Source: an uncultured Alphaproteobacteria bacterium
Lineage (GTDB): Bacteria > Pseudomonadota > Alphaproteobacteria > Rs-D84
DNA: 64,000 nucleotides
Assembly (NCBI GenBank): GCA_963931495.1
Contig: OZ007020.1
Coordinates: 363,338 to 427,337 of the forward strand
Reading direction: 5' to 3'
Below the pieces are notes generated by a model. That model was given only the letters and a program-made list of their open reading frames with translations. It had not been told where the DNA came from and ran no database searches. Position 1 is the stretch's first letter, and every line of letters begins with the position of its first letter. Below, piece by piece: positions 7,225-31,987 of the stretch. The translations under genes were made by a program, and so were the position numbers.

Positions 7225-7235
7225 GTGCACAGTTA

Positions 7236-7415: not shown

Positions 7416-7441
7416 AATCCCGCAATATGCGGGATTTTTTA
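7414..7441. terminator. Bidirectional Rho-independent terminator
   Basis: aaaatcccgcaatatgcgggatttttt. Confidence 0.6.
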
Positions 7442-8146
7442 TGCACTGTGGCGGTTGATGGCCGCAGATATTTCGTCCAATGATGCGTTACAAGGTAACA
7501 TGGGTTCAAACCATACATTTGCCGTGCCTGGGCGCATTTTTCCACGCTTTGGCCAGTACAGTCCCGTATCTGTTCCAACCGGTAATATTGGTAATTTTAA
7601 TTCATGGGCCAGAAATAACAAACCGCGTTTTAATTTTACTTTTTGTCCCGGCTTTGCACGTGTGCCTTCGGGGAATATTATCAGTACCATGCCGTCCATA
7701 ATCTTTTTTGCCACGGCGTTTGTTAATTTATGCATGTTTGTTGCACCACGTGCACGATTTACCGGCTGTAACCCCATGCGCCAAAATGCCCATCCGTAAA
7801 TCGGAATCCACAATAATTCGCGCTTTATTATAAAAAATGCATGTGGCAATTTGGTTGTTAATATCGCAACTTCCAGTATGGACATGTGTTTTGCGGCAAC
7901 AATCGCTTTGCCATCCAGACGTATGTTTCCGTTTGGGGTCATTGGGATACCATTTTCTTCGTTTGGTGGAAAATGCAATGTGTACTTTATCCCAGCGACC
8001 AATCGGGCAATGCCCAGCACACCGCGCGCGCATGTGCGTATTAAAAAACGTATTAATGATTTGGATATTAACCCAATTAACAAAATCGGTGACCATAAAA
8101 CAAAATACAGTCCCAGTGTAATTTTGAAAAGAATTGTTCTGAACAT
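7439..8146 (-). CDS. plsC: 1-acyl-sn-glycerol-3-phosphate acyltransferase (PlsC family lysophospholipid acyltransferase)
   Basis: LIIFPEGTR motif and a KHMSILEVA (HX4D/E-like) motif. N-terminal TM segment. The ORF track extends to 8200, overlapping the upstream gene. Confidence 0.6.
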   Translation of the reverse strand: MFRTILFKITLGLYFVLWSPILLIGLISKSLIRFLIRTCARGVLGIARLVAGIKYTLHFPPNEENGIPMTPNGNIRLDGKAIVAAKHMSILEVAILTTKLPHAFFIIKRELLWIPIYGWAFWRMGLQPVNRARGATNMHKLTNAVAKKIMDGMVLIIFPEGTRAKPGQKVKLKRGLLFLAHELKLPILPVGTDTGLYWPKRGKMRPGTANVWFEPMLPCNASLDEISAAINRHSA

Positions 8147-8168
8147 TACTGTTTTTTCCTTTTGATTA

Positions 8169-8678
8169 CTATCGTTCTTTGATTCCGCAAAGTGTTGCAA
8201 TGTATTTTATATATTCTGTGGCCCATCTTTCAAGTCTTTTTGCAGGCGGCATCCCAGATAATGGTACCGGGCATGCGATTATTTCTGAATCTGGAATTTC
8301 ATGTTGTATCAAGTGACGCGCGCGATTCATGTGGTCTTCGGTTGTAATTAAAACGATCCTGTCCAGTCCAGTGCGTGTCGCAATTTTTTTTATTGCCAAT
8401 GCATTTTGATATGTTGATTCTGATTCGGATTCAATCGTTACACGACGGTTTATTTCATATGAACCATCATCGCCCGCACCAATGATATACAGGTCTGTAT
8501 TTGGATATGTGCGTAATTTACGCATTGCAAACGGAATGCGGCGCATGTCACCGGTTAATACAAAAATACTGTCGTCTGGCAATATTTCGTTACACTGTGA
8601 CGGTGTAGAAAACTTAAACGCCATTCCACCAATCGCAACGCATGTCAGAAGTAATAAAGACGATGTTAATAATCTCAT
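8169..8678 (-). CDS. Periplasmic DUF218 (YdcF/ElyC/SanA-like) domain protein
   Basis: Signal peptide MRLLTSSLLLLTCVAIGG. Core IVLITTEDHMNRARHLIQHE...YIIGAGDDGSYEINR resembles DUF218. Confidence 0.4.
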   Translation of the reverse strand: MRLLTSSLLLLTCVAIGGMAFKFSTPSQCNEILPDDSIFVLTGDMRRIPFAMRKLRTYPNTDLYIIGAGDDGSYEINRRVTIESESESTYQNALAIKKIATRTGLDRIVLITTEDHMNRARHLIQHEIPDSEIIACPVPLSGMPPAKRLERWATEYIKYIATLCGIKER

Positions 8679-9514
8679 TCTTCGTTTTTAAGAATATTCA
8701 ATGTTGTGCGTTTTGTCATCCAAATTGCGAATATTATTATAACAATTGGCAATAATAACAATGTAATCCATCCCGCCCCAGATATGTCCAACATTGCCAT
8801 TAACCCAACGCGTGCACTGTGCGCGGTTGACAGTATTAACAGTAATACTGGGGCCGCAACAACAAATCCAATTCCACCCGCAATTGTACATATTTTTGCA
8901 ATAATAATTTGCATCTGGTGGGCAACATATGCGTCTGTGGCGCCAATTTGGTTTAATATTTCCAGTTCGCGTCGGTGCAACAATGCCATATTACGTGTGA
9001 TATACGATATGCACAGACCAATTGCCCCCAGGGTCAGCACTAATACAAACGATGCAATCAGAATCATTTTCCATCCGGCCGATGTTGATGCGTTTAACGC
9101 ATCGGCATGTGTTAAAAAACGCGCATATTTTGATATCTGGGGGCCGATTTGTTCCATGGCATCGGTTGTGGTAAATTCAACTTCATACATTTTTGGCAGA
9201 TAGTTTTCCAATGCCCCACCGCCAGAAATCCATGGCCGCATTAAATCACGCATTTGTTCAGTTGTTATTTCTGTGACATGGGTTATTTTGTCAGTGTTTT
9301 CATCAAAAATCTTTTTTACATTTGCTGTATTATCAGTATCCATAATCTGGACAGTGGCGTATAAATCCCATTGCGAATTCCAGCGAATAACCCCCGTGCC
9401 AATTGCCAATGACATGCCCAATGCAATTACCGCCAGAAAAGTTAATAACGACATTATTGCCGTCATGAAAACGGATTGGTCTTTGATTACAGAAAATACA
9501 ATGGGCTTTTTCAT
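8675..9514 (-). CDS. ftsX: FtsX-like ABC transporter permease (4 TM segments, periplasmic loop between TM1 and TM2)
   Basis: Topology and size fit FtsX (TM1, ~100-aa loop, TM2-4). Translationally coupled to the upstream ATPase (stop/start at 9514/9515). Confidence 0.55.
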   Translation of the reverse strand: MKKPIVFSVIKDQSVFMTAIMSLLTFLAVIALGMSLAIGTGVIRWNSQWDLYATVQIMDTDNTANVKKIFDENTDKITHVTEITTEQMRDLMRPWISGGGALENYLPKMYEVEFTTTDAMEQIGPQISKYARFLTHADALNASTSAGWKMILIASFVLVLTLGAIGLCISYITRNMALLHRRELEILNQIGATDAYVAHQMQIIIAKICTIAGGIGFVVAAPVLLLILSTAHSARVGLMAMLDISGAGWITLLLLPIVIIIFAIWMTKRTTLNILKNEE

Positions 9515-14305: not shown

Positions 14306-15580
14306 ATGAAAAAATTAACCGCAGGTATATTTGCAACCTTATTAGCTGTTGTGTCGGTTGGTGCCGCACGCGCTGATATCGCGTCCAGCCAATATGTTGA
14401 TGACAAGGTTGATACCGTTGAAACATCTGTAACAACATTGTCTGGACGGGTTGATACCGCCGAAGAGGGAATTGAAACATTGGGAACAAAATTGGATGCC
14501 AAGTTGGATTCTGCAACAGCGGCCAGCACGTATGCAACCCAATCAGCATTAACAAGTGGTTTGGCGAACAAGCAAGATAAAGCACTGATTACATCAGCAG
14601 AATATGCGGAACATATATCCAGTGAAACAGGTTATCCATCTGTGGCGGCAGTAGAAGCGGCAATTGATGCGGCAACCGATGGGGTGGTTACCGATGTGTC
14701 GGACAAGGTTGATATTGCCCAGGGCGCTGGTGCCGCGAACAAGGCTGTTATTACTGGGGCGGATGGTAATATTACAACTGGTGAAGTTACCAGCGGCATG
14801 ATTGCAGATGGTACAATCGTTAATGCAGATATTTCCGCATCGGCGGCCATTGAGGCATCAAAAATTACAGGTCTGGGTGGTTTGGCCAGTCAAGATACTG
14901 TTGGTGCCGGTGATATTGAAGCGGGCGCAATCGTTAATGCAGATATTTCCGCGTCGGCAGCCATTGATCAATCAAAAATTAATGGATTAGAAGCATCGTT
15001 GGGTGCAAAAGAAAATGTTGCTAATCGTGTTACAACGACAACATGGAATGCAAACAAGAACAGTGATGAAATGTATCCGACAGCGGGTGCGGTCAATGCC
15101 GCAATTACAACCGCAACGTCTGGTATTACAACAGATATATCTGAATTGACGACCCAGGTTGAAGAAAATACCCAGGGTATCGCTGATAACGCAAGTGATA
15201 TATCAACCAATACATCGGCGATTGGTACTTTGACCAGTTTGACAACCACAGAACAAGGAAACTTGGTTGGTGCGATTAATGAAGTGGCCGGTGAGGTTGC
15301 GGATGTTTCGGGTGATATTGCATTAAAACAGAATATCACAGATAACACATTCACAACAGCGGCGAAGACGGTACCGGGTGCTGTTAATGAATTGAAAACC
15401 GCGGTTGATGCGGCCGCAGATGCGGCAGAAGCAGCCCAGACGGCGGCCGATGCCAAGATCCCAATGCCAAGTGGCGAATGCAGCAACCCAACAAACAAAT
15501 GCGTATTAGTATCAAATGGTACAAGTTCGTTTGAATGGGAAGTTGTTGCCCGTGGTGTGTCACCGGATGTTGGTGAATAA
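14306..15580 (+). CDS. Secreted phage-tail-fibre-like coiled-coil protein (array member 3, 424 aa)
   Basis: Signal peptide followed by DIASSQYVDDKVD. Motifs GYPSVAAVEAAIDAATDG and MYPTAGAVNAAITTATSG. Duplicated block GTIVNADISASAAIEASKITGLGG / GAIVNADISASAAIDQSKINGLEA. C-terminus GECSNPTNKCVLVSNGTSSFEWEVV. Confidence 0.5.
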   Translation: MKKLTAGIFATLLAVVSVGAARADIASSQYVDDKVDTVETSVTTLSGRVDTAEEGIETLGTKLDAKLDSATAASTYATQSALTSGLANKQDKALITSAEYAEHISSETGYPSVAAVEAAIDAATDGVVTDVSDKVDIAQGAGAANKAVITGADGNITTGEVTSGMIADGTIVNADISASAAIEASKITGLGGLASQDTVGAGDIEAGAIVNADISASAAIDQSKINGLEASLGAKENVANRVTTTTWNANKNSDEMYPTAGAVNAAITTATSGITTDISELTTQVEENTQGIADNASDISTNTSAIGTLTSLTTTEQGNLVGAINEVAGEVADVSGDIALKQNITDNTFTTAAKTVPGAVNELKTAVDAAADAAEAAQTAADAKIPMPSGECSNPTNKCVLVSNGTSSFEWEVVARGVSPDVGE

Positions 15581-17422: not shown

Positions 17423-18298
17423 TCAACTGCCGGTGGTATCACTGCCGGTGAATTTATTTGGTATAACATAGCATTCTGTTATAGAAACAGTGCCAGGGGT
17501 TGCAGAACCGCCAACACCGATAGAGCCGTCGTTTATTTCGCCCGGGCCGGCGGTCGTTTGGGTACCAGATGAATGCGATGGGCATGGGGTGCAATATGAT
17601 ACTATGCTGCCGGCGAAATTTGCATTAGGTACCCCGTAAAATCCCTTGGGGCATCGCGTTTGTTTATTCATGTACGTCATGCATCTGTTGCCACTGCATG
17701 CTTTCTTTGTGCGGACCTGGACCGCGTTTGAACCACTGTATGCCATTTCCCATGCTGTTGGAACGCATGTTGATTCATCGCATGTGCCACCAGTGGTGCC
17801 ACCACCACCAGTATTGCTGGCCAAAGAATCACTCATACATTTATAATAGGTTACATTACTGCATCCCAAAATAGTGTGTTTTACGCGTGTGTATCCAGAT
17901 TTACATCCGCTGGCGGATTTAATATAGTATTGAATACCATCTGCATCAAAACATATGTTTGTGGTACCTGTGGCCCCAGGATCGCCCATCACAGATGCCG
18001 TTGAACCAAAGTCTATGAATTCCGTGCGTTCATATATATTGGTGCATCCCGCAGACAGGCATTGAGCATATCCACCGCCGCCGCCACCACCACCACCGGA
18101 ATCGCCACAGCGACGACAACATGCGGTGTTTACAATGTCAAGGCATGTCATGCATCCACTGATGCATTCGGATACGTTATCCCAATCTAAGTATGATTCA
18201 GGAATGTTGGCACTGAATGCAGGCGTATTGAAACACAGGCAACATAACACAGAAAACACCCCGCCATGCCAAATGGCGGCATTTGATTTTATATACAT
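17423..18298 (-). CDS. Secreted cysteine-rich protein with ephrin-receptor/TNFR-like repeats and a poly-Gly tract
   Basis: Signal peptide MYIKSNAAIWHGGVFSVLCCLCFNTPAFSA. GGGGGGGGGG run. Motifs CTPCPSHSSGT, CPKGFYG and CKSGYTRV. The start is taken at an internal Met; the ORF track gives 18343. Confidence 0.5.
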   Translation of the reverse strand: MYIKSNAAIWHGGVFSVLCCLCFNTPAFSANIPESYLDWDNVSECISGCMTCLDIVNTACCRRCGDSGGGGGGGGGYAQCLSAGCTNIYERTEFIDFGSTASVMGDPGATGTTNICFDADGIQYYIKSASGCKSGYTRVKHTILGCSNVTYYKCMSDSLASNTGGGGTTGGTCDESTCVPTAWEMAYSGSNAVQVRTKKACSGNRCMTYMNKQTRCPKGFYGVPNANFAGSIVSYCTPCPSHSSGTQTTAGPGEINDGSIGVGGSATPGTVSITECYVIPNKFTGSDTTGS

Positions 18299-18396
18299 AT
18301 TTTTGTCTCCCACTTTTGTTGTTGTGAATGCCGAATTTGTCATTCACAACATTTGCATTTATTATATAAAATTTTGCATGTGGGTTCAATCGCAAA

Positions 18397-18972
18397 TTAA
18401 AACAGGGATATTAATCCAATACCCAGGCCGGCCGCAATTATCGCCCCAATCGTTATCGGCCAGAAATATTTTTTTACAATCGCGTTTGCGCGTTCTTGGA
18501 AAAAATACAACAGTGTTGCAATTATCGCAAAGCGACCAGTGCGGAATATCGCAGATACACCGACAAATATCCACAATGGATATCCAATGAACCCCAACCA
18601 TATCGCCAACAGTTTGTATGGTATCGGGGTTACCGCGGTTAAAACAATAATCAGTATGCCGTATTTGCTGAACATCGGTTTGATGGCCGTGTCAATTAAT
18701 TCTGGATTAGTAAATGTGTTTATTATCCACATGCCAAGTGAATCCCATAACCATGCACCAATCAGATATGCAATTATGCCACCAACAATTGAACCCAGTG
18801 CCGCGGCAATTGTTATCGGTAACGCGCGTTTCTTGTTCGCGATGATTGGCGGGGTCATAAATACTTCGGGTGGAATAAATAAAAATATTGATTCGCAGAT
18901 TGTCAAGAAAAATACAATCCATGAATATGCGCGGCTTTCTGATTTGCTTAATATATATTCTGCGAATTTCAT
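18397..18972 (-). CDS. DedA/YqaA (VTT-domain) family inner-membrane protein
   Basis: Polytopic membrane protein with an ...FLTICESIFLFIPPEVF... motif characteristic of the VTT/SNARE-associated domain. Confidence 0.45.
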   Translation of the reverse strand: MKFAEYILSKSESRAYSWIVFFLTICESIFLFIPPEVFMTPPIIANKKRALPITIAAALGSIVGGIIAYLIGAWLWDSLGMWIINTFTNPELIDTAIKPMFSKYGILIIVLTAVTPIPYKLLAIWLGFIGYPLWIFVGVSAIFRTGRFAIIATLLYFFQERANAIVKKYFWPITIGAIIAAGLGIGLISLF

Positions 18973-19068
18973 TTATCTCTCGGTTCCCATGGTTGATTCA
19001 AAAAAATTTACTTGATTGTAAATTAATATTTTATACTTTACAATACATTATATATGGTGAATGCAAAT

Positions 19069-19425
19069 ATGATGAAAAAACAAAATAATTCCAATCGTGC
19101 AGAACGTGTGGCCAGTAAAGTTCAAACACTGGTCGCAGAAATATTGCGCAGTCAGTTTGGCGATGATGAATTGCTGGGCGGGGTGTCGCTGGTCGGCGCC
19201 GTGGCACATGGCGGATTACAATTCGTGCGATTGTTCTTTTATTCCCATAATAAAAATATTGCCGATGTTCAACGACGATTGGACCAAGAAACAAAAACGA
19301 TTCGTTATGAACTGGCCGCGCGAATGAATCAAAAATATGTGCCAGAAATCCGTTTTGAATATGACGATACGCTGGAACGGGCCGCGCGAATTGATGAAAT
19401 TTTTGCCAAATTAAACGAAAAATAG
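19069..19425 (+). CDS. rbfA: Ribosome-binding factor A
   Basis: RAERVASKVQTLVAEILR...ELLGGVSLVGAVAHGGLQFVRLFFYS...VPEIRFEYDDTLERAARIDEI matches the RbfA pattern (RaxRVaxxi...L...vtit.V.vS.DL..A.Vy...vPeL.F..D.sl). Confidence 0.6.
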   Translation: MMKKQNNSNRAERVASKVQTLVAEILRSQFGDDELLGGVSLVGAVAHGGLQFVRLFFYSHNKNIADVQRRLDQETKTIRYELAARMNQKYVPEIRFEYDDTLERAARIDEIFAKLNEK

Positions 19426-19493
19426 TTTTATGAAAATTTGGTTGCAAGTTCGTATATACTGGTGTATTATTGCCGCATAACGCGCGGTATAGT

Positions 19494-21290
19494 ATGAATC
19501 AAAAGTATATCAGAAATTTTGCAATCGTTGCACATATTGACCATGGTAAGTCAACGCTGTCTGACCGGTTGATTGAATATACCGGCGGATTGCAATCGCG
19601 CGAAATGAAGGCCCAGGTACTGGATTCTATGGACATTGAACGTGAACGTGGAATAACAATCAAGGCGCAAACAGTGCGATTAAATTATACGGCCAAGGAT
19701 GGACAGGTTTATCAATTAAATCTGATGGATACCCCCGGACATGTTGACTTTTCATATGAAGTATCACGCAGTTTGGCCGCATGTGAAGGCGCATTGATTT
19801 TGGTTGATGCAACCCAGGGGGTCCAGGCGCAAACACTGGCAAATGCATATTTGGCGTTGGATAACGATTTGGAAATGTTGCCGGTTCTGAACAAGATTGA
19901 CTTGCCGTCCAGTGATGTTGATGCCGCACGCCAGCAGATTGCCGATGCGATTGGATTGGACGCGTCAAATGCGATTTGTGTGTCGGGAAAGACAGGTGCC
20001 GGCGTTCCAGAATTGTTGGAAGAAATTGTTCATAAATTGCCCGCCCCAGACGGTGATGAAAATGCCCCGGCGCGCGCGCTGTTGGTGGATTCGTGGTATG
20101 ATTCTTATCTGGGGGTTGTGATTCTGGTGCGGGTTGTTGATGGGCAATTGGCGCGTGGTCAGAAAATTCGCTTTATGGCAACAGGTGCAGAATATGTGAT
20201 TGAAAAAATCGGATGTTTTACACCAAAAATGATTGATACAGATGCGTTGCTGACCGGTGAAATCGGATTTATTATCACAGGAATGAAAACAATCCATGAT
20301 TGCAAGGTCGGCGATACAATTATTGATGCGCGTGCGGGTGCGGCGTGCGAACCGTTGCCGGGTTTCAAGCCGTCTGTGCCGGTTGTTTTTTCGTCGTTTT
20401 TCCCAGTATCGGCGGATGATTATCCGAATTTGCGCGATGGCGCAGAAAAATTGGCGTTGAATGACGCGTCGTTCGTGTTTACAACAGAAAAGTCATCTGC
20501 ACTGGGGTTTGGATTGCGGTGTGGGTTCTTGGGGTTGTTGCATATGGAAATTATCAGTGAACGTTTGCGCCGTGAATTTGGATTGAACTTGATTAATACG
20601 GTGCCAAGCGTGTTGTATAAAATTCATATGCGTGATGGCAGTATCGTTGATCTGGAAAATCCCGCAGATATGCCAGATGTTACAAAAATTGAATCTGTTG
20701 ATGAACCGTGGGTGCGGGCAACAATTATGATGCCTGATAAGTATATGGGCGGAATTATGTCACTGTGTTCCGAACGGCGCGGGGTGCAAGAAAATATCTC
20801 TTATGTTGGTAATCGCGCCGTGTTGGTATACCAGTTGCCATTGGCGGAAATTGTGTTTGATTTTTATGACAGGGTAAAATCTATATCGTCGGGCTATGCA
20901 TCGTTTGACTATGTCGTTCAGGGATATCAGCCGTCTGATTTGGTCAAAGTGTCCATATTGGTTAATGAAGAAAATGTAGAACCACTGTCTTTTATGTGTC
21001 ATCGCAGCGCCGCAGAAAAACGGGGGCGCCAAATTGTTGAAAAATTAAAAGATTTAATCCCAAGACATCAATTCAAAATTCCGTTACAGGCCGCAATCGG
21101 TGGTAAAATTATCGCACGTGAAACAATTGCGGCATATCGCAAGGATGTAACAGCAAAATGCTATGGCGGGGATATTACGCGCAAGCGCAAATTGCTGGAA
21201 AAGCAAAAGGAGGGAAAAAAACGTATGCGGACATTCGGTAATGTGGAAATACCCCAGTCTGCATTCATAAACGCATTGAAAGTAAACTGA
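19494..21290 (+). CDS. lepA: Elongation factor 4 (LepA)
   Basis: [30 protein letters not shown]-domain motifs. Highly conserved LepA C-terminus ...[21 protein letters not shown]. Confidence 0.9.
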
Positions 21291-21307
21291 TATAAAGGAA
21301 CTGGGCC

Positions 21308-21724
21308 ATGTCTGTGTGGACGTATATACTTAAAACACCAATAAAAGTAATTCGGGCGGATTTCGCAGAATATAGAAAACTGAATCAAGACATTGCGCGT
21401 GTGGGACGTAATATGCAGAATGCACGTGTTAATATGATTGTGCGTATGGGGAAAAAATGGTGCGTGGTTCCATCGGCACGTGCGTATGCGGGCTGTGTGC
21501 AAAAATCTTGGACCCCAGAGTTAGATATTCAAATGGGAATTAATGTATTGCGTGAATATGAATGTGAATGTCCGTTGTTCGTTCCAAACTGGTGGCCGTG
21601 TAATCAAGTAAACTGTCTGTATCACCAGTTTAACAACAAGTATTTTGAAAATAAAAATATTTATGAAGTTCTGAAACGTAATAAGTCTGGGTTTTGGAAA
21701 GAAAAGTTTAACAAGGTACGATAA
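21308..21724 (+). CDS. Small Cys-containing protein, family member S1 (138 aa)
   Basis: N-terminus WTYILKTPIKVIRADFAEYRKL, paired Cys residues, C-terminus FWKEKFNKVR. Paralogous to 21742..22023 and 22358..22747. Confidence 0.4.
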   Translation: MSVWTYILKTPIKVIRADFAEYRKLNQDIARVGRNMQNARVNMIVRMGKKWCVVPSARAYAGCVQKSWTPELDIQMGINVLREYECECPLFVPNWWPCNQVNCLYHQFNNKYFENKNIYEVLKRNKSGFWKEKFNKVR

Positions 21725-21741
21725 ATGGTGGGGTTGTTGTT

Positions 21742-22023
21742 ATGTCTGGGTGGAAATATTTAATTAAAACTTCGCGGAAAACGTTAAAATCAGATATCAC
21801 AGAATATAAAAAACTGTGTGAACGTCTTGTGGATGCCAGGCGACAATATAATTTATCACGTGCATCCTTTACAGATGTTGGATGTACGCGTTATCCATGC
21901 AAAGACATATATTGCAAATATTATGAAGTTAACCGAAATTATGGCGAAACGTTGCATATGATGCATATGTTGGAAAAACAGCGCAAGATTTACTGGGTGC
22001 AAAAGTTTGCAAACTGTCGGTAA
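21742..22023 (+). CDS. Small Cys-containing protein, family member S2 (93 aa)
   Basis: WKYLIKTSRKTLKSDITEYKKL ... CKYYEVNRNY ... IYWVQKFANCR. Confidence 0.4.
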   Translation: MSGWKYLIKTSRKTLKSDITEYKKLCERLVDARRQYNLSRASFTDVGCTRYPCKDIYCKYYEVNRNYGETLHMMHMLEKQRKIYWVQKFANCR

Positions 22024-22034
22024 AAAAAAACAAG

Positions 22035-22340
22035 GTGAATGTTATGAATAAATTTAACGTTGTAAAAAAAACTGTTTCTGATTGTTTTAATATACGGCCG
22101 GGTGTAATCAATAAAACAACTCATCTGGAAAATGATTTAGAATTGGACAGTCTGGACAGAATTATATTACAGGCGAAAATAGAATCAAAATGTAAAAATT
22201 TTTATCCAAATGTTAAAAACTGGGTGGAAAATGTTCAAACGGTCGGTGATATCGCAGATTATGTTGATATGTGCAATCATGTGAATTGTAAAAAATTCGG
22301 ACTTATTGGGCTTATCGGCCGTTTCGGAAAATCAATGTAA
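22035..22340 (+). CDS. Acyl-carrier-protein-like small protein; a second, divergent carrier protein
   Basis: VVKKTVSDCFNIRPGVINKTTHLENDLELDSLDRIILQAKIESKC...VENVQTVGDIADYVD aligns with the ACP pattern (..[22 protein letters not shown]....ITTVQDAIDYI). The phosphopantetheine Ser lies in LDSLD. Confidence 0.4.
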   Translation: MNVMNKFNVVKKTVSDCFNIRPGVINKTTHLENDLELDSLDRIILQAKIESKCKNFYPNVKNWVENVQTVGDIADYVDMCNHVNCKKFGLIGLIGRFGKSM

Positions 22341-22357
22341 ACAAGGGAAATAAAAAT

Positions 22358-22747
22358 ATGAAAATAATTCAATATATGTTAACAACACCAATAAAACAAC
22401 AACGTGCGGACCTTGCGGAATGGCGTATATTACAATACAAATGCGCGTCACTGCATTTGGATAAATTTTGCGCATATGATTCGCTGATTCGGTTTGTTAA
22501 CGAAAATCAAAATCCGCATGATATACGGGCGTGTGTAAAGCGGCCTGAAAATTGGCAACAGTTCATGTCCGTCCCAGACGATTCGTTTTGTAAAAAATTT
22601 AATCCAAATAATATGATGGGGGCGTGCGATGAACAAAATTGTCCTTTCTATCAGCGCAATAATGCATTCTTTAATATTTTGAAACGGTATGAAAGCGCGA
22701 TTACAGCACGGCGTGATTTTTGGGATAATAAAATGAATCAGCGTTAG
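22358..22747 (+). CDS. Small Cys-containing protein, family member S3 (129 aa)
   Basis: IIQYMLTTPIKQQRADLAEWRIL ... CPFYQRNNAFFNILKRYE ... FWDNKMNQR. Confidence 0.4.
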   Translation: MKIIQYMLTTPIKQQRADLAEWRILQYKCASLHLDKFCAYDSLIRFVNENQNPHDIRACVKRPENWQQFMSVPDDSFCKKFNPNNMMGACDEQNCPFYQRNNAFFNILKRYESAITARRDFWDNKMNQR

Positions 22748-22770
22748 TCTTTCTGGACGGGGGGAATATC

Positions 22771-23769
22771 ATGGCACATCAATTCTTTTTTAATCCGTTT
22801 ATATTGGATAACTTGCCGACACCAAGTGCGGGATTTGATGTGGTCCAGGATATATCTGAACCGCGTCTGCGTATGTATATCACCAGTCGCGGGATAAAAA
22901 CATTCTTTGTGCGTAAACGTGTACATGGGCGGGACAAGCGTATAATAATTGGAAATTATCCGGATATTGATGTTGAAACAGCACGTGGAATGGTGCCATC
23001 TGTGTTGGCGCGCGCAATGGAAAAACCACGCCGTCGCAATAAAAAAATTACAATGCGCAAATTTCTGGATATATATTTGACGAACCGAATTCGCAGAAAC
23101 AGTTATTCGCGCGAAAAATTGGAACGCGCAATAAGACGGCATCTGTCACCACTGTTTGATATGCCATTGAATGAAATTTCAGATGCTGATATTGCCAATG
23201 TTATCATATGTATCCATGGCCCGGCCATCGCAGCCCGTATGCAGGATTTGTTACAAAGTGTTTACAAGTATGCAATTGATAATGGGTATGCCAATGAAAA
23301 TCCAGTTGCGAAATTACAGAAAATAAAGCCTGTGCGTCGTGTGCGGCCGTTGAATATGGCGGGGTTCCATCGGCTGGTGGGGGCAATAAAACGCGAACCT
23401 GTCCAGAATTTGCGCGCGGCGTTTTTAATGCTGGTGTACGGTTTCGCACCGAAATCACGTGTCTTTGCAATGCAATGGCGTGACCTGGATTTTAACCTTT
23501 ATATGTGGAATGATTGGCCACTGTCTGATGCCGCGGTTGTTTTGTTACAGGATTTGCCGCAAAATGGCCGTTGGGTATTTCCTGGACGGGGACGGGGGCA
23601 TTTGACAGATCCGCGTGTCGCATGGCAGCGGATTGTGACCAAGGCCGGTATCCCAAATGTGACAATGGACGATGTGCATAAATTCTTGATGCGACAATTG
23701 GTCTGGGCCCCAGACAAGGAAGATATTCGTGCAAATATGAATGATGTTTTGGTAAATGCGCTTGGTTGA
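22771..23769 (+). CDS. P4-type (tyrosine recombinase family) integrase homolog, short and probably catalytically degenerate
   Basis: N-terminal arm-binding signature LRMYITSRGIKTFFVRKRVHGRDKRIIIGNYPDIDVETARGM (compare L.L.V.PSG.K.W..RYR..GK....LG.YP..SLA.AR). The C-terminal region lacks an obvious HxLRHT...Y catalytic box. At 332 aa it is shorter than the typical ~400 aa. Confidence 0.5.
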   Translation: MAHQFFFNPFILDNLPTPSAGFDVVQDISEPRLRMYITSRGIKTFFVRKRVHGRDKRIIIGNYPDIDVETARGMVPSVLARAMEKPRRRNKKITMRKFLDIYLTNRIRRNSYSREKLERAIRRHLSPLFDMPLNEISDADIANVIICIHGPAIAARMQDLLQSVYKYAIDNGYANENPVAKLQKIKPVRRVRPLNMAGFHRLVGAIKREPVQNLRAAFLMLVYGFAPKSRVFAMQWRDLDFNLYMWNDWPLSDAAVVLLQDLPQNGRWVFPGRGRGHLTDPRVAWQRIVTKAGIPNVTMDDVHKFLMRQLVWAPDKEDIRANMNDVLVNALG

Positions 23770-23905
23770 TACATATATTTTTGCATTTGTCAAGTGTTTG
23801 TTATCGTTTGTTATAATTTCTTGACACTGTTTGCATAAAATGATAGTTTTAAGTAATGACGCCCGTGTTCGGGCCAAAAATTTAACAAGAATAAAGGATA
23901 AAAAT

Positions 23906-24139
23906 ATGACAACTTTTGAACGTGTAAAAAAAATTGTGTCTGAAAAATTGAGTATACCAGAAGCGCGAATTGAAGAAAATTCGTCTTTTGTAAATGATTT
24001 GGGCGCAGATTCTTTGGACGTCGTGGAATTTGTTATGGCCGTGGAACAGGAATTTGGTATTGAAATTCCAGATGATGCCGCAGCAAAATTAACAACTGTG
24101 GGCGAAGCGGTTAAGTATATTGATGCACATAAAAAATAA
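23906..24139 (+). CDS. acpP: Acyl carrier protein
   Basis: [75 protein letters not shown] is a canonical AcpP. The ORF track began it at 23831; the true ATG is at 23906. Confidence 0.9.
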
Positions 24140-24171
24140 TAGTTTGGGGTTTGTGTATCAAGAATAGTAAA

Positions 24172-24206
24172 GTCCGTCGCGATATTTTTTGCGTGACGGA
24201 TTTTTT
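24172..24206 (+). terminator. Rho-independent terminator or attenuator after acpP
   Basis: gtccgtcgcgatattttttgcgtgacggattttttt. Confidence 0.45.
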
Positions 24207-24276
24207 TCTGTACGTTGATTGTTAAACGTTATATTATAATTGCATCGTACAGGTTTTATTACAAAGGATATGTGGT

Positions 24277-25530
24277 ATGAAAAGAGTTGTTATTACCGGC
24301 ATGGGAATTGTATCACCGGTTGGAACAGGCGTTGAATATGCATGGAAAAATATTGTTAATGGTGTGTCTGGGGTGCGGAAAATTGATACATTTGATGCAT
24401 CTGATTTGGCATCGCAAATTGCGGGATTACCGGTTGTGGGGACTGAACCAGGGCAATATAATCCAGATGCGGTTGTTGATGCGCGCGAACAGCGTAAAAT
24501 GGATAAATGTATTATATACGGCGTTGTTGCCGCAGATGAAGCAATCAAAGATGCCGGATTGGCCGAATACGATGGGGACAAAACCAGAATGGGCGTTTCA
24601 ATTGGTGCGGGCATTGGTGGATTGAATACGATTTATGATAACTGTGTTGAATTGTATGCAAATGGTCCACGACACATCAGTCCGTTCTTTATCCCAAAGG
24701 TTATTATTAATATGACCGCGGGACATGTTTCTATTAAATATGGGCTGAAAGGACCGAATCTGTCTGTTGTTACAGCATGCGCGTCGGCGGCGCATTCAAT
24801 TGGCGAAGCCGTGCGGTTAATCCAGCATGGTGATGCAGATGTTATGGTTGCTGGTGGTGCCGAAGGTGCGGTTGGTAAAATTGGCGTCGCAGGATTCTGT
24901 GCAATGAAGGCGTTGTCAACGCGTAATGATGAACCAGAAAAAGCATCGCGCCCATGGGATAAAGGTCGTGATGGATTTATCATTGCCGAAGGTGCCGGTA
25001 TTTTGGTTCTGGAAGAATACGAACATGCGATTAAGCGTGGCGCAAAAATTTATGCCGAAGTTGCTGGGTACGGTTTATCCGGTGACGCATATCATATTAC
25101 GGCACCGGCCCCAGGGGGCGAAGGTGGGCTGCGTGCAATGCAGGCGGCATTAAAAGATGCCGGAATGCAACCGGGCGACGTTGATTATATCAATGCACAT
25201 GGAACATCAACAGGTTTGGGTGACATGGGTGAATTGGCCGCGGTAAAGACGTTGTTTGCCGGTGCCGATGTTTCAATGTCTTCAACAAAATCTATGACAG
25301 GTCACTTGTTGGGTGCCGCCGGTGGGATAGAGGCGATATTTTGTGTGATGGCAATTCGTGACGGAATTGTGCCACCAACAATTAATCTGGAAAATCCAGA
25401 AGAAGAGGTTGGTGATTTTGATTTAGTTCCGAATGTTGCCAAAAAACGCACGGTTGATGTTGCGTTAAGCAATTCGTTTGGTTTCGGTGGTACGAATGCC
25501 AGTTTGATTATTAAACGATTTGAAAAATAA
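24277..25530 (+). CDS. fabF: 3-oxoacyl-ACP synthase II (KAS II)
   Basis: MKRVVITGMGIVSPVGTG...; active-site context ACASAAHSIG; ...HGTSTGLGD...GHLLGAAG; C-terminus NSFGFGGTNASLIIKRF. Confidence 0.9.
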   Translation: MKRVVITGMGIVSPVGTGVEYAWKNIVNGVSGVRKIDTFDASDLASQIAGLPVVGTEPGQYNPDAVVDAREQRKMDKCIIYGVVAADEAIKDAGLAEYDGDKTRMGVSIGAGIGGLNTIYDNCVELYANGPRHISPFFIPKVIINMTAGHVSIKYGLKGPNLSVVTACASAAHSIGEAVRLIQHGDADVMVAGGAEGAVGKIGVAGFCAMKALSTRNDEPEKASRPWDKGRDGFIIAEGAGILVLEEYEHAIKRGAKIYAEVAGYGLSGDAYHITAPAPGGEGGLRAMQAALKDAGMQPGDVDYINAHGTSTGLGDMGELAAVKTLFAGADVSMSSTKSMTGHLLGAAGGIEAIFCVMAIRDGIVPPTINLENPEEEVGDFDLVPNVAKKRTVDVALSNSFGFGGTNASLIIKRFEK

Positions 25531-25556
25531 AAAATGCCCCGAATGGGGCATTTCTT
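25530..25556 (+). terminator. Terminator hairpin after fabF, with a weak T-run
   Basis: aaaatgccccgaatggggcatttcttat. Confidence 0.4.
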
Positions 25557-25615
25557 ATATCTTGTTTTATTTTTATATACATATTTTGTATGAATAAAAT
25601 CAATTAACGCGATAG

Positions 25616-25650
25616 ATAAAAAAAAAACGGGCAATGCCCGTTTTTTTATT
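25616..25650. terminator. Bidirectional Rho-independent terminator
   Basis: aaaaaaaaacgggcaatgcccgttttttt. Confidence 0.6.
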
Positions 25651-27355
25651 ATTTGTCATCATCTTTGCCGAATCCAATCGTGCTTTTGATTGGTTCAATA
25701 ATTGTGTTTTTGGCACTGTCCAGCGTGCGTATTAATGCACGACGAATTTTGCCACTGATTGTCATCGGCAGACTGTCCACGAATTCAATTACACGTGGAT
25801 ATTTGTATGATGCAGTGCGACTGCGTACATGATCTTGTAATTGACGCACAAGAACATCTGTTCCTTGGAAATATTTATTCAGAACAATTGTCGCCTTGAC
25901 CGCCATGCCACGTGATGGGTCGGGAATTCCAGTAACGGCAACTTCGCGGACGGCGGGATGTTCCAGCAGCACACTTTCAACCTCAAACGGGCTGACGCGA
26001 TATCCAGACGTTTTGATTAAATCATCGTTCCGGCCAACAAACCAATAGTATCCATCGTTGTCGCGGTACGCCACGTCCCCAGTATGATAGAATCCATCAC
26101 GAAATACCTGGTTCGTCAGTTTTTCGTTTTTATGATAACCCTGGAATAATCCCACAGGACGGCCATTTTTTAACGATACGCAGATTTCACCAACTGTACC
26201 ATTCGGAACAGGGCGTCCGCCTTCGTCCAATAACTGAACATCCCAGCCCGCTGCCGGCATGCCCATGCTGCCCGGTTTGGGTTCAATCCATTGATTTGTA
26301 AACAGCATTATGCATGTTTCTGTTTGACCGAAACCTTCGTGTAATTTGATGTCTGTGGCCGATTGAAAGCGTTCAAAAACTTCTGGATTTAACGCTTCGC
26401 CGGCAACGTCAGCCTTGGTCAATGCGGATACATCATAATGTGTGAAATCAGCGTGTATTAACATTTTATATACAGTTGGGGGTGCACAAAATGATGTTAT
26501 GTGGTTGTCTGACATCGCGGACAATAAATCATGTGCGGTCGCGATTCCGGAAAAGTCATATACAAATACGGTCGCGCCCGCCAGCCATTGGCCGTACATT
26601 TTGCCCCATGAACATTTTGCCCATCCTGATTCAGACAATGTAAAATGAATGTCGCCATCATGCAGACGTTGCCAAAACACGGCGGTGTTTATATGCCCCA
26701 GCGGATATACGAAATTATGTGCAACCATTTTGGGTAAATCTGTGGTGCCACTGGTGAAATATATTACCATCGTATCAGTGTTATTATTTGGGACACGTGC
26801 AAATTCAGACGGCATTGTTTCCAGTGCGCCATCAATATCTGGGGTTAATATTAATTTAACATCAGATGTGCCGATTGCCGTCTTGATTTCGTTTATAATG
26901 TGTCCATCGTCGTATGCAAAAATATATTTCGCGTCGGCCTGGCGAATGCGGTATTCAATATCTTCGGCCTTTAACTGATTCGTTGATGGAATTGGTATGA
27001 TTCCAGCCTTGTGCATGGCCAACATTAAAATCCAATATTCCCAGCGACGACGCATGAACAGCAATGCAGTGTCGCCACGGTTCATGCCAAGTGATGTTAA
27101 ATAATTTGCCAGTGCGCCCGACATTAACGATAAATCACGAAATGTAAAACGTTTGATTTCCCCCGAATCGTCGGTCCACAATAATGCCAAATTATTCGGT
27201 GTTTCTGTTGCCAATACATCAATTACATCATATGCAAAATTAAAGTTTTCTGGAACAACAGGGGCGCCATTTTGGATATAGTCTTCGTAACTGTCAAATT
27301 TATCTTTTTTCAGGAATTTTGATGCAAACATATTCTGGTTACCTTTTTTGTTCAT
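25649..27355 (-). CDS. AMP-dependent acyl-CoA synthetase (medium-chain fatty-acid--CoA ligase family)
   Basis: AMP-binding motifs IYFTSGTTDLPKMVAH, HEGFGQTET, FYHTGDVAYRDNDGYYWFVGRNDDLIKTSGYRVSPFEVE. Confidence 0.7.
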   Translation of the reverse strand: MNKKGNQNMFASKFLKKDKFDSYEDYIQNGAPVVPENFNFAYDVIDVLATETPNNLALLWTDDSGEIKRFTFRDLSLMSGALANYLTSLGMNRGDTALLFMRRRWEYWILMLAMHKAGIIPIPSTNQLKAEDIEYRIRQADAKYIFAYDDGHIINEIKTAIGTSDVKLILTPDIDGALETMPSEFARVPNNNTDTMVIYFTSGTTDLPKMVAHNFVYPLGHINTAVFWQRLHDGDIHFTLSESGWAKCSWGKMYGQWLAGATVFVYDFSGIATAHDLLSAMSDNHITSFCAPPTVYKMLIHADFTHYDVSALTKADVAGEALNPEVFERFQSATDIKLHEGFGQTETCIMLFTNQWIEPKPGSMGMPAAGWDVQLLDEGGRPVPNGTVGEICVSLKNGRPVGLFQGYHKNEKLTNQVFRDGFYHTGDVAYRDNDGYYWFVGRNDDLIKTSGYRVSPFEVESVLLEHPAVREVAVTGIPDPSRGMAVKATIVLNKYFQGTDVLVRQLQDHVRSRTASYKYPRVIEFVDSLPMTISGKIRRALIRTLDSAKNTIIEPIKSTIGFGKDDDK

Positions 27356-27436
27356 ACATTAATAAATTATAAATAGCCGTATGCAAGTATTGCAGATTAT
27401 TTTCACAAGTAAAACAAAAATAATGAATAAAAAAAG

Positions 27437-27465
27437 TTGATTTTTTATTCCCATGGGTGCATAAT
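27437..27465 (+). promoter_or_regulatory. Candidate sigma70 promoter for tRNA-Pro (TTGATT-17-CATAAT)
   Basis: ttgatt ttttattcccatgggtg cataat. The -10 ends 21 nt before the tRNA 5' end. Confidence 0.35.
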
Positions 27466-27486
27466 CGGCCTGGTTGTTTGGTGTTG

Positions 27487-27563
<77 letters not shown>

Positions 27564-27571
27564 TAAGTTTT

Positions 27572-27600
27572 TTGTGCGCCGTGGTGGCGTTTTTATTTTT
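27572..27600 (+). terminator. Rho-independent terminator after the tRNA
   Basis: gtgcgccgtggtggcgtttttatttttt. Confidence 0.5.
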
Positions 27601-27643
27601 TGTAATTTGCATTCGTTTTTTTATCTGTAATAATATGTATGCT

Positions 27644-28657
27644 ATGAGAAAGAAATTAAAAATTCCAAATAACAGAGTACTGGGTATTGTTGGCTTTATT
27701 GTTGTTATTCTGGTGATATTGTTATATCTGTTTGGTATTCGCAGTGTCGTGTCGCATGATGTGACGTTTGAATTGTCGCGTGGTACCACTGTGTCCGCGG
27801 TGGCGACACAGTTAAATGCCATAGGGGTGATTGATATGCCAGGACTGTTCAAAATCGCAGTTCGTGGTAATGGTGGGCAAATTCAATCAGGACTGTATGA
27901 TATTCCACGTGGAACCAGTGTATGGCGTATCGCCCGCATGTTTGCCAATGGTGACGTGGCGTCAACAACAATTGTTATCCCCGAAGGTTTAACAGTACAA
28001 CAGATTAAGCGATTGTTGCTGGACGAATCTGGGTTAACAGGTGGTGTTGAATGTGGTCCGGGGACCGATTTGCCGGTGTGTGATTTGCATGATGGGGATT
28101 TGTTCCCAGATACATACCGGGTTGCGCGCGGCACGTCGCGATTGGCAGTGTTGGATTTAATGCGTAAAAAAATGCTGGATTTGCGTCATAATTGGGAACG
28201 GGGTGGGGCGATTGCGCCACGGCCGTTGAAATCTTGGAACGATGTGGTTACATTGGCATCCATTGTTCAAAAAGAAACGCCCAAAAAATCAGAAATGCCA
28301 ATAGTGGCCAGTGTGTACCTGAATCGGTTGCGTGATAATATGCGTTTACAGGCGGATCCGACGGTGGTTTATGCGGTGACGCGTGGACTGGGGGATATGC
28401 AGGGGCGCCCGTTGTTGCGTGAATACCTGAAAACAGACAGCCCATATAATACATACACGAATCGCGGATTGCCGCCGGCACCAATCGCGAACGTTGGTCG
28501 TGATGCGATATATGCTGTCTTGCAACCCGCAGACACAAATTATTTGTTTTTTGTCGCAGATGGTACTGGTGGGCATCGTTTTTCGTCGTCGTATGACGAG
28601 CATATGAAAAATCATGCGAACTGGCGCGTGATAAAAAAAATTCAAAATCAAAAATAA
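27644..28657 (+). CDS. mltG: Endolytic murein transglycosylase MltG (YceG-like)
   Basis: N-terminal TM anchor. YceG-like domain with ...VIPEGLTVQQI... and ...LQADPTVVYA...YNTYTNRGLPPAPIANVG... motifs. Confidence 0.7.
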   Translation: MRKKLKIPNNRVLGIVGFIVVILVILLYLFGIRSVVSHDVTFELSRGTTVSAVATQLNAIGVIDMPGLFKIAVRGNGGQIQSGLYDIPRGTSVWRIARMFANGDVASTTIVIPEGLTVQQIKRLLLDESGLTGGVECGPGTDLPVCDLHDGDLFPDTYRVARGTSRLAVLDLMRKKMLDLRHNWERGGAIAPRPLKSWNDVVTLASIVQKETPKKSEMPIVASVYLNRLRDNMRLQADPTVVYAVTRGLGDMQGRPLLREYLKTDSPYNTYTNRGLPPAPIANVGRDAIYAVLQPADTNYLFFVADGTGGHRFSSSYDEHMKNHANWRVIKKIQNQK

Positions 28658-28723
28658 AAAGTCGTCATTTATTAAAAAAATTAATAATTTATTTATTTAA
28701 TAATGGCGTGTATCAATGTAATA

Positions 28724-28750
28724 AAAATGCCGCATTTATGCGGCGTTTAT
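28724..28750 (+). terminator. Terminator-like hairpin
   Basis: aaaaatgccgcatttatgcggcgtttatc. The T-run is weak. Confidence 0.35.
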
Positions 28751-28922
28751 CAATTATTCACGAATTTTATCCGATTCGTTACTGCATATGTTTATAGCAT
28801 ATTTAGTGTCATTTTGCAAAAATCTTTGAACTTGAAAATCGGTGATTGTGGACTATACAATATTTATGACCGGGGTGGAAAATCTGGTTTTTTGCTAACT
28901 TAACATAATAAAAGGACAGGAA

Positions 28923-29685
28923 ATGAAAAAAATAATTTTAACATCTTTGTTGGCTGTTTTTGCGGCAACAAGTGCAAACGCGGCAATTAATGATAATCCT
29001 ATGTATCGTCCGGACCAGGGCCGCTTTTACAGTGTTACAGAATTGAATTCGCATACCGAAGATATTGACAGTTGGAAAGTTACAGAAAAATTTGGTTATG
29101 GCATAACAGACCAAGCGTCTATTTACATTAATACTGATTTTATATGAATATAATTCTTTTGACCACTATGGTTGGGGCAATTTTGAAATCGGTGCTGATT
29201 ATCGTTTGTTGAATGATATGAATTGGAAAGTTGATGCGTATGGTTCGTATGCGTTGGCGCCAGTATGGGGGGCAGAATTCTTGGATTCAAATGCAACAAC
29301 ATATACATGGGGGGTCGGTGTTCGTGCCGGATATGTAACGGATTTGTGGACGGTTGCTGGACATGTTGAATTTAATTATTTGAACAGTGAATCGTTCAAT
29401 TGGGGCAACGATTTTGGAAATAATCATCTGTTGATTGCCGGGTTGGATGGATTTGTTTCGCTGACATCAGATTGGGCATTAATGCTGGGGGCGGAATACA
29501 CCGGCGTTATGGATGACAGCGCAGAAAATGCCGGCAGATGGGACGGCAAAATTGGCGTAAATTATAACTTTAACCAAGACATGTTTGCTGGTGCGTACGT
29601 GTCAGCGATGATGGGTCATGGTTCTGGTGATTGGAAAATCGCCGATGGCATCGGATTTGGTGTAAAATTTGGTGCACAATTTTAA
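28923..29685 (+). pseudogene. Outer-membrane beta-barrel protein paralog, interrupted by a frameshift in a T4 tract near 29137-29147
   Basis: ORF 28923..29147 (signal peptide MKKIILTSLLAVFAATSANA) and ORF 29206..29685 (ending ...IGFGVKFGAQF) are contiguous in two frames. Reading ...INTDF(I)YEYNSFDHYGWGNFEIGADY... requires a 1-nt shift at gattttata. Confidence 0.45.
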
Positions 29686-31292: not shown

Positions 31293-31405
31293 CTCCAACC
31301 ATTGGTTGGAGGGCTGTGAATAATGCGTTTACGCAAAATAAGCACACTATACCGTATTGTAGTCTTGAACCTCCAACCACTTGAAAATTCTTTCAGTGGT
31401 TTTTT
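31293..31405 (+). repeat. Palindromic repeat element B. CTCCAACC-ATT-GGTTGGAGGG, then a ~57-nt spacer, then CCTCCAACCAC and an intrinsic-terminator hairpin plus T-run. Candidate small RNA.
   Basis: gctccaaccattggttggaggg...cctccaaccacttgaaaattctttcagtggttttttg. Confidence 0.5.
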
Positions 31406-31420
31406 GTTTGGGGGTGGATT

Positions 31421-31987
31421 ATGAGAAAGCTTATATTTATTATCGTTGTCTGCATGCTGTACCACAACGCGTATGGTGCGGTAGGAGAACCATGCAGCGA
31501 GCCGTGTTTAGAAGGAACAATCCCAATACCATATAGTTGGGATTGTGGTGTGTGTCCTGCTAATACATATATGGATGAGGTGTTATGTCCCGAACCCAGA
31601 TTATTTGAATGTAAGCCATGTCCCGCGGGTACAATAACAATTGGCGATACAGCCGCCGATCATGACAGTATTGATGACTGTGTCGCTGCGCCTGTATTGT
31701 GTGCGTCCGGATATTATTTGCCTGCCGGTTCTGCAACATGTACGCAATGCCCAAAAAATTCATATTGCCCGGGCGGGGAATATACATCATCTGGTCAAGA
31801 TAGTGGTATTATCGCATGTCCAAATGATACCAAATCACCGATTGGTTCTGACAGTGCGGATGATTGTGGTCGTATATTACATATTGGTGAATATGTTTTA
31901 TACTTACGCACTGCAAAATTAACCAGTCCAGCATTGCATGTAAAAATAGGTGATGTGATATATTATGGGGATGCGTTTCCCGCATAG
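31421..31987 (+). CDS. Secreted cysteine-rich protein with ephrin-receptor/TNFR-like repeats (188 aa)
   Basis: Signal peptide MRKLIFIIVVCMLYHNAYG. Motifs CPANTYMDEVLCPEPRLFECKPCPAGT and CTQCPKNSYCPGGEY. Confidence 0.5.
   Translation: MRKLIFIIVVCMLYHNAYGAVGEPCSEPCLEGTIPIPYSWDCGVCPANTYMDEVLCPEPRLFECKPCPAGTITIGDTAADHDSIDDCVAAPVLCASGYYLPAGSATCTQCPKNSYCPGGEYTSSGQDSGIIACPNDTKSPIGSDSADDCGRILHIGEYVLYLRTAKLTSPALHVKIGDVIYYGDAFPA

Follow-up and report, generated by a model that had tools for sequence, protein, structure and literature searches.

A catalytically dead integrase homolog and a family of small cysteine-containing proteins in an inherited operon of Rs-D84 Alphaproteobacteria

When an integrase-type gene preceded by several small genes is found between lepA and acpP-fabF, does it mark a mobile island in decay or a lasting part of the chromosome? 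The question is raised by a 64,000-nt stretch (the window) from an uncultured alphaproteobacterium of the lineage Rs-D84 (assembly GCA_963931495.1, contig OZ007020.1, positions 363,338 to 427,337), in which five plus-strand open reading frames (ORFs) occupy this interval. Three encode small cysteine-containing proteins, S1 (21308-21724, 138 amino acids (aa)), S2 (21742-22023, 93 aa) and S3 (22358-22747, 129 aa); one encodes a divergent, basic carrier-like protein, ACP-like (from the GTG at 22035, 101 aa, or from the ATG at 22044 used in public calls, 98 aa, to 22340); and the last, INT-like (22771-23769, 332 aa), is a catalytically dead homolog of P4-type tyrosine recombinases. The original prediction, which described all five ORFs correctly, took them for a decayed integrated islet whose cargo, the carrier and the small proteins, may have been domesticated. 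The concept of domestication holds, but it applies primarily to the integrase and not to the cargo, and the block proves to extend the rbfA-lepA operon in one clade, Candidatus Enterousia and related Rs-D84 bacteria, where it is inherited vertically.

The integrase homolog and its place in the chromosome

Matches of INT-like to Pfam comprised Phage_int_M (29.9 bits), Phage_int_SAM_3 (24.8 bits) and Arm-DNA-bind_3 (PF13356, 23.8 bits against a cut-off of 27 bits), and the best PHROGs match was the integrase family phrog_1 (E=1e-27), with 20-25% identity to phage integrases. The protein comprises an arm-binding region (residues 1-90), a core-binding SAM-like/Phage_int_M domain (91-185) and a truncated recombinase-fold domain (186-332); no match to the catalytic-domain model PF00589 was found in the INT-like protein of the window. 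Searched against 5.8 billion proteins, INT-like matched 1058 clusters, and the best 120 of these, at least 66% identical to INT-like and 332-334 aa long except for one of 350 aa, likewise lacked PF00589, with PF13356 annotated in all but one. The arm region also aligns with the arm domains of four genuine integrases; AlphaFold2 gave residues 1-66 a predicted local distance difference test score (pLDDT) below 50.

The catalytic positions were checked in an alignment with four phage integrases, each matching PF00589 at E values from 1e-17 to 1e-32 (all ≤1.4e-17). The Arg-I position is occupied by Pro227, within the motif GFAPKS, and this proline is at least 90% conserved across 35 orthologs. The beta-hairpin bearing the catalytic lysine is deleted (a 12-residue gap), the H-x-x-R box reads D300-D-V-H303, its final position being a tyrosine in one species (L009), and His-III and the tyrosine nucleophile have both gone through a 25-residue deletion. 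Because every catalytic position is substituted or deleted, INT-like cannot be a recombinase, and residual recombinase activity was rejected on this alignment, all six catalytic positions being lost. The integrase homolog without a catalytic box that had been predicted is therefore borne out, and the loss of all catalytic residues preceded the radiation of the clade.

INT-like is nevertheless no pseudogene, a possibility rejected by both its conservation and its ratio of nonsynonymous to synonymous substitution rates (dN/dS). Among 80 genomes fetched for comparison, the ORF finder gave lengths of 331-349 aa, mostly 332-339 aa, and the proteins are 64-80% identical across species. In comparisons with three of these species (L014, L009 and L033), INT-like is 71-79% identical with dN/dS of 0.09-0.20, synonymous sites being saturated, close to the values for acpP (74-79%; dN/dS 0.08-0.17), and relative to L014 the two proteins are about equally conserved (79% vs 74%); LepA is 92.6% identical to its orthologs in these comparisons (L014, L008 and L033). 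Conservation across the 35 orthologs reaches ~95% in the arm-binding N-terminus, where 22 of the first 30 residues are invariant, and ~99% in the GRGRGHLTDPR loop of the C-terminal domain; the protein is strongly basic (isoelectric point (pI) 10.4). These comparisons indicate that strong purifying selection has maintained INT-like together with three DNA-contacting modules, the arm-binding, core-binding and shortened recombinase-fold domains.

A scan of species-representative genomes for INT-like matched 242, and the census presented here covers the 80 that were fetched, annotated with a hidden Markov model of the S family and with phmmer using the window proteins. All are metagenome-assembled genomes from the guts of humans, chickens and ruminants, and their labels read Candidatus Enterousia, uncultured Alphaproteobacteria or Rickettsiales. 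Every locus spanning the region has the order rbfA-lepA-[S x 0-6]-INT-acpP-fabF (80/80 fetched species genomes); rbfA precedes lepA in nearly all of them and lies on the opposite strand in four, and INT-like is always found between lepA and acpP-fabF (80/80). Because relatives hold the same genes at the same position, the picture of a decayed islet between lepA and acpP is not supported. An identical S1 protein, with the same neighbours, is encoded on many metagenome contigs, one of them 958 kb long. Enterousia belongs to the uncultured order Rs-D84, with genomes mostly <1 Mb (PMC12306168), and those of the locus-bearing species are ~0.75-1 Mb. Members of Rs-D84 lack respiration as well as lipid, amino-acid and nucleotide biosynthesis, show no accumulation of pseudogenes and are predicted to be obligate symbionts or parasites (PMC12306168).

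The ORF map drawn over positions 18000-29000 of the window places the block in a compact plus-strand gene string. It opens with rbfA (ribosome-binding factor A; 19054-19425, 123 aa; PF02033 on the public gene call), followed by lepA (elongation factor 4; 19470-21290, a 606-aa ORF with GTP_EFTU/LepA_C domains), for which public calls start at the ATG at 19494 (598 aa) and whose stop lies 17 nt upstream of S1. The successive spacers between lepA, S1, S2, ACP-like, S3 and INT-like measure 17, 17, 11-20, 17 and 23 nt and contain only Shine-Dalgarno-like sequences. After INT-like come acpP and fabF (24277-25530, plus strand, 417 aa; ketoacyl-synt domains), and a terminator scan found nothing convincing upstream of two terminator-like hairpins beyond fabF (25532-25553 and 25621-25647). 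The 11-23-nt spacers and the absence of a convincing terminator before the end of fabF imply that the S, ACP-like and INT-like genes would be co-transcribed with rbfA-lepA.

The S array and the carrier-like protein

In BLASTP comparisons S1 matched S3 at E=2e-10 and S2 at E=1e-10. The pairwise match between S2 and S3 is weak (E=0.022), yet each matches the S-family profile, S2 at E=1.3e-21, and by sequence similarity the three are true paralogs, as had been proposed. An exhaustive profile search recovered 180 representatives at E ≤ 1e-3, where a word-indexed search returned only 7 clusters; most are 123-148 aa long, with a few tandem forms of ~250 aa. The N-terminal motif, the cysteine positions and the C-terminal FW..KF motif recur in 61 aligned members, among which Y6, C63, C98 and C103 are invariant and D18, Y22, C88, N109 and W130 are at least 90% conserved. 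S1 and S3 are full-length members, with a predicted helical hairpin and four-cysteine (Cys4) knuckle in S1; in S2 the central beta region is deleted and three of the four conserved cysteines are retained, and S2 orthologs elsewhere are 108-148 aa long.

The AlphaFold2 model of S1 (pLDDT 95) consists of a short N-terminal helix, a helix spanning residues 12-43, a three-stranded beta region (44-87), a cysteine-rich segment and a helix spanning 106-137. Inferred from this secondary-structure layout, and assuming that the long helices pair as an antiparallel hairpin, one end of the molecule would carry the N- and C-terminal motifs together, and the opposite end the cysteine cluster with the indel-rich segment. 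The four cysteines may bind zinc. S proteins are hydrophilic and basic (median pI 9.1). No meaningful match was obtained with Pfam over the 61 members, NCBIfam or PADLOC, where none of the five block proteins (S1, S2, ACP-like, S3 and INT-like) scored at E ≤ 0.1; PHROGs gave only chance-level matches for S1 (E ≥ 0.11), and the structure search gave no specific fold match. Every member whose context was examined sits between lepA and INT-like, and the family profile found no further copy in the window. The S proteins thus form a previously undescribed, well-folded and clade-restricted family, and the claim of a novel small-protein family stands.

The array varies considerably. Of 78 species in which lepA and INT-like are both present, 7 have no S gene, 39 have one, 13 two, 11 three, 6 four, and single species carry five and six; in 6 of the 7 genomes without S genes, lepA and INT-like are separated by a gap of 6-30 nt. 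Where LepA is 92.6% identical, S1, S2 and ACP-like are only 30-57% identical to their orthologs. S3 is the best conserved of the S genes (69% identity to L014; dN/dS 0.08-0.18), and dN/dS remains below 1 for the S genes overall (0.08-0.5).

Variation also arises within a species. The window and three independent assemblies of the same species (L002, L004 and L006) are near-identical over up to ~20 kb except for a patch of ~185 bp in S3 (22408-22592, plus strand), ~30% divergent and with a 21-nt indel, which accounts for 58 mismatches and 21 gap columns in the 22400-22600 bin, with almost none outside, and yields alleles of 129 and 122 aa. Because its edges are sharp and its substitutions are of all types, we interpret the patch as a recombination tract, and a diversity-generating retroelement was rejected on the same two features. 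The S array is therefore fast-evolving, variable in copy number and recombining between strains. Another assembly, L007, matches the window at ~80% identity over rbfA-lepA, at 58-61% in the 5' half of S1 and then at 99-100% from mid-S1 at ~21540 through S2 to the end of the contig (~10230-10828 of L007; window ~21540-22050), a mosaic that could reflect inter-species recombination inside S1 or a metagenome assembly chimera. A further ORF (L105, 1047-1805; P0117, 252 aa) combines an N-terminal S half with an HNH endonuclease domain (PF01844, 29.6 bits); it comes from one 2 kb scaffold in a single sample and may be a homing-endonuclease insertion or an artefact.

The second gene type in the array, ACP-like, is related to acyl carrier proteins (ACPs), as originally called, albeit weakly in the window: it scores 19.4 bits against PF00550 (cut-off 20.8) and 35.7 bits against the best NCBIfam ACP model, and it has the DSL serine. 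Its identity to the canonical AcpP encoded 1.6 kb downstream (acpP, 23906-24139, plus strand, 77 aa; PF00550 61.8 bits, TIGR00517 108.8 bits) is 31%. With a pI of 8.7 (K+R 14 vs D+E 11) against 4.5 for AcpP, a basic C-terminal tail and a helix II (DSLDRIILQAKIESK) that lacks the strongly acidic character of genuine carriers, it is atypical, in keeping with the view of a carrier outside any fatty acid synthase, polyketide synthase or non-ribosomal peptide synthetase module. The serine is kept in the window, in L014, in L033 and in the fusions described below, and is replaced by leucine in L009 and L010; orthologs are 30-34% identical. ACP-like is probably not an acyl carrier.

The gene is limited to the species of the window and a few close relatives, so that a carrier protein as ancestral cargo can be dismissed: it came late, in one subclade only. 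In three species it is fused in frame to an S gene (L027, 4326-4943, P0088; L035, 4277-4915, P0126; L036, 5319-5975), giving proteins of 205-218 aa in which the ACP-like domain (PF00550, 31.9-41 bits) takes the place of the S N-terminal helix. These fusions, as Rosetta-stone evidence, argue that ACP-like and S3-type proteins act together. ACP-like is thus a late, subclade-specific and atypical addition, linked to the S proteins by fusion. A tandem ACP-like::ACP-like ORF was also observed in a fourth species (L033, 3858-4487).

The region upstream of acpP and neighbouring genes

The ~130 nt between INT-like and acpP are strongly conserved, with a mean pairwise identity of 75% and core columns at least 95% conserved in an alignment of 78 species. 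The block (23787-23849, plus strand) contains two promoter-like hexamer pairs, formed by TTGTCA (23787-92), TATAAT (23812-17), TTGACA (23821-26) and TG-n-TAGTTT (23841-49), and a tandem repeat, TTTGTTAT-NN-TTTGTTAT (23797-23804 and 23807-23814). Further downstream, RNAalifold on 28 sequences predicted a hairpin in the acpP 5' leader (GCCCG-TGTT-CGGGC, 23861-23874, plus strand), three of whose four predicted pairs show two-sided, pair-keeping changes between species; an Rfam search over 18900-25700 gave only sub-threshold noise, at the fabF terminator, and no match for the leader hairpin. In one genome (L049) an insertion of 1.7 kb (~7000-8700), apparently with a gene on the opposite strand, lies between INT-like and the promoter block. 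Because the block stays beside acpP in this genome despite the insertion, the simplest reading of its sequence is that of a promoter and leader for acpP. Within the 64 kb window the tandem repeat occurs, in its exact form, only here. A role of TTTGTTAT as a dispersed INT-like site was rejected, because half-sites are not in excess over the window (9 observed vs 7.7 expected); the tandem copy at 23797-23814 is the only candidate for an INT-like operator, and its link to INT-like is speculative.

Beyond fabF, adjoining acpP-fabF, an AMP-forming ligase is encoded on the minus strand (25649-27355), with the acyl-CoA synthetase MbcS as its best match (413 bits vs an 850-bit cut-off) and an orientation that varies between species; together with acpP-fabF it could form a module for fatty-acid scavenging or activation in an organism reported to lack lipid biosynthesis. 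Downstream of the ligase gene follow a tRNA-Pro (27487-27563) and a gene with a YceG domain (mltG-like). Upstream of rbfA, a minus-strand gene (17423-18343) encodes a 306-aa protein rich in cysteine and glycine, with poly-Gly runs and no NCBIfam match; it is probably a variable surface protein because its length differs among strains (291-302 aa in L001-L005). An additional small Y1_Tnp (IS200-like) gene lies upstream of this gene in L005, and up to 90 mismatches per 200 bp, together with indels, separate the window from the same genome at ~14600-15400, in a gene of ~424 aa of unknown function, the two strains being otherwise similar. From ~31400-31724 onward, faint Pfam matches to Ephrin_rec_like/NCD3G and 16 mismatches with indels relative to L002 and L006 were noted; this region may encode another variable cysteine-rich surface family.

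Possible functions of the block

What, then, could a dead integrase do in an operon? INT-like shares with P4-type (CP4-57/IntS-like) integrases the order of an Arm-DNA-bind_3 domain, a SAM-like/Phage_int_M domain and a recombinase-fold C-terminal domain, and differs from them in lacking the R-K-H-R-H-Y set, in being 60-80 aa shorter, in having no att or tRNA target and in its vertical inheritance. Possible functional parallels are dead recombinases. MrpR (YopR) and SroF are dead tyrosine recombinases that serve as DNA-binding master repressors of SPbeta-like Bacillus phages (bioRxiv 10.1101/2025.11.27.690993); like them, INT-like combines a core-binding and a catalytic-type domain of the recombinase fold without the catalytic tyrosine, but it has no homology to MrpR or SroF and no phage repressor-operon context. 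TnsF, another dead tyrosine recombinase, selects the target of Tn6022-like Tn7 transposons (PMC10293859). TnsF differs from INT-like in its N-terminal zinc fingers, in its tandem core-binding domains and in being part of a mobile element, with comM as its target; no transposition genes accompany INT-like. The small basic S proteins, whose genes directly precede an integrase-type gene and run in its direction, also recall pairs of an excisionase (Xis) or other recombination directionality factor (RDF) with an integrase. The family is, however, unlike any known RDF family in Pfam or PHROG and consists of multiple variable paralogs with a Cys4 knuckle, and its presumed partner cannot recombine and occurs without S genes in 7 species. 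As for AcpP, sequence similarity and the DSL serine of the window genome link it to ACP-like, which departs from it in being basic, below the Pfam cut-off here, devoid of the serine in L009 and L010, restricted to a subclade and fused to S in three species.

We consider it somewhat probable that INT-like is an exapted dead integrase serving as a DNA-binding or bridging protein in an inherited operon, with zinc-knuckle S proteins as accessory partners. The comparisons above show that the last gene of the operon is a P4-type integrase that lost catalysis before the radiation and was retained by purifying selection, preceded by a tandem array of 0-6 copies of ~130-aa basic S proteins. Each S protein would consist of two long antiparallel helices, with conserved termini at one end and, at the other, a beta knuckle with four cysteines and a hypervariable insert. 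By analogy with the known dead recombinases, INT-like might bind or bridge DNA sequence-specifically, as a regulator or an architectural factor. The S proteins would be dispensable accessory factors whose conserved base docks and whose variable tip provides changing specificity, the partner being possibly INT-like, a nucleic acid or a carrier domain. In one subclade an ACP-like gene joined the array, turned basic and is fused to an S domain in three species; its product would act as a partner domain of S3-type proteins rather than as an acyl carrier.

Several observations weigh against the exapted DNA binder and its accessory partners. No DNA site of INT-like was recognised; among the neighbouring non-coding DNA, strong conservation is seen only in the acpP promoter block, where a strong promoter may be explanation enough, and the L049 insertion parts INT-like from this block, which stays with acpP. 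Since 7 species keep INT-like without any S gene, INT-like cannot depend on S proteins. S proteins also evolve far faster than INT-like, which is unexpected of obligate partners unless contact is made through the conserved base only, and the arm-binding domain of INT-like is poorly modelled over residues 1-66.

For an integrase-type gene, origin from a phage or an island is the default expectation, and the rotting integrase of a P4-like island between lepA and acpP, with S genes and carrier as perhaps co-opted cargo, would fit the P4/arm-binding type of INT-like, its missing catalytic box and the dip in G+C to 0.33-0.37 from S2 to S3. Yet acpP is equally low (0.34), the same locus is present in all 80 fetched species genomes, and INT-like is near-constant in length with 64-80% identity and dN/dS of 0.09-0.20. 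The patchy presence expected of an island is confined to S copy number and the ACP-like gene, the latter being late and subclade-specific. A search for att-like repeats involving the tRNA-Pro 3' end had been suggested, and none turned up: the search for direct and inverted repeats over 19000-28000 found no flanking repeats, only coding similarity among paralogs, and the tRNA-Pro 3' end (27539-27563) does not recur in the window, even with 3 mismatches allowed. Nor do Rs-D84 genomes accumulate pseudogenes (PMC12306168). A decaying island is therefore a very improbable account of the locus; it may fit the remote origin rather than the present state, and an ancient phage or island origin of INT-like, predating the radiation of the clade, is plausible. 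An integron-type cassette array was also rejected, because spacers of 11-23 nt leave no space for attC-type sites; the intergenic stretches are free of imperfect inverted repeats, and the recombinase homolog is inactive.

Two other explanations treat the S proteins apart from INT-like. As carrier-protein-binding adaptors for acpP-fabF, basic S proteins would dock on acidic AcpP or on ACP-like and route or sequester acyl-ACP in a lipid scavenger, INT-like being functionally separate. The array always lies shortly upstream of acpP-fabF, ACP-like::S fusions exist in three species with PF00550 above the cut-off, the charges of S (pI ~9) and AcpP (pI 4.5) are complementary, and Rs-D84 lack lipid biosynthesis yet have acpP, fabF and an acyl-CoA-synthetase-like ligase; mitochondrial LYR-motif proteins, small basic helical ACP binders, offer an analogy only. 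However, the immediate neighbour of the array is INT-like and acpP appears to have its own promoter, ACP-like domains, whether fused or adjacent, are themselves basic and in one lineage devoid of the serine, the 7 species without S genes still carry acpP-fabF, and the 61 members searched against Pfam resemble no ACP-binding family, so that we regard adaptors as unlikely. We are just as doubtful that the array is a family for partner or host interaction or for conflict (effectors, immunity-like or anti-phage proteins), under diversifying pressure and parked in a permissive, constitutively transcribed spot. Copy numbers of 0-6, identities of 30-57% against 92.6% for LepA, the within-species recombination patch on the variable part of S3, one S::HNH fusion and hosts predicted to be obligate symbionts or parasites would all suit such a role. 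The S sequences are nonetheless hydrophilic throughout, with no hydrophobic segment or signal-peptide-like N-terminus, PADLOC and PHROG gave no match, overall dN/dS is 0.08-0.5, below 1, and the confinement of the family to a single locus beside INT-like, as well as the ACP fusions, would be left unexplained.

A bolder form of the exapted-integrase proposal is in our view improbable: the dead integrase would be an essential, clade-defining regulator or chromosome-architecture protein, and the S proteins zinc-knuckle cofactors whose hypervariable tips re-target INT-like, or a carrier-protein-dependent process, in a strain-specific manner, with the ACP-like domain as a built-in partner. If true, this would be a regulatory system of three parts (exapted integrase, novel protein family, disabled carrier) with no described counterpart.

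Dead tyrosine recombinases in exapted roles have been described in a few mobile-element settings, such as the SPbeta repressors and TnsF. What would be new here is a dead tyrosine recombinase reused as a binder in the form of a core chromosomal gene coupled to an undescribed protein family. For annotation, the locus is a warning that an 'integrase' beside small unknown genes is not always the marker of a mobile island. INT-like is fixed in the chromosome throughout an order of uncultured gut bacteria with minimal genomes, which are common in humans, poultry and ruminants. Most metabolic functions have been lost from these genomes, yet INT-like has stayed about as conserved as AcpP, so it is probably of importance to Rs-D84 organisms. 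The copy-number variation of the S genes, their recombination between strains and their domain fusions point to a function that differs between strains.

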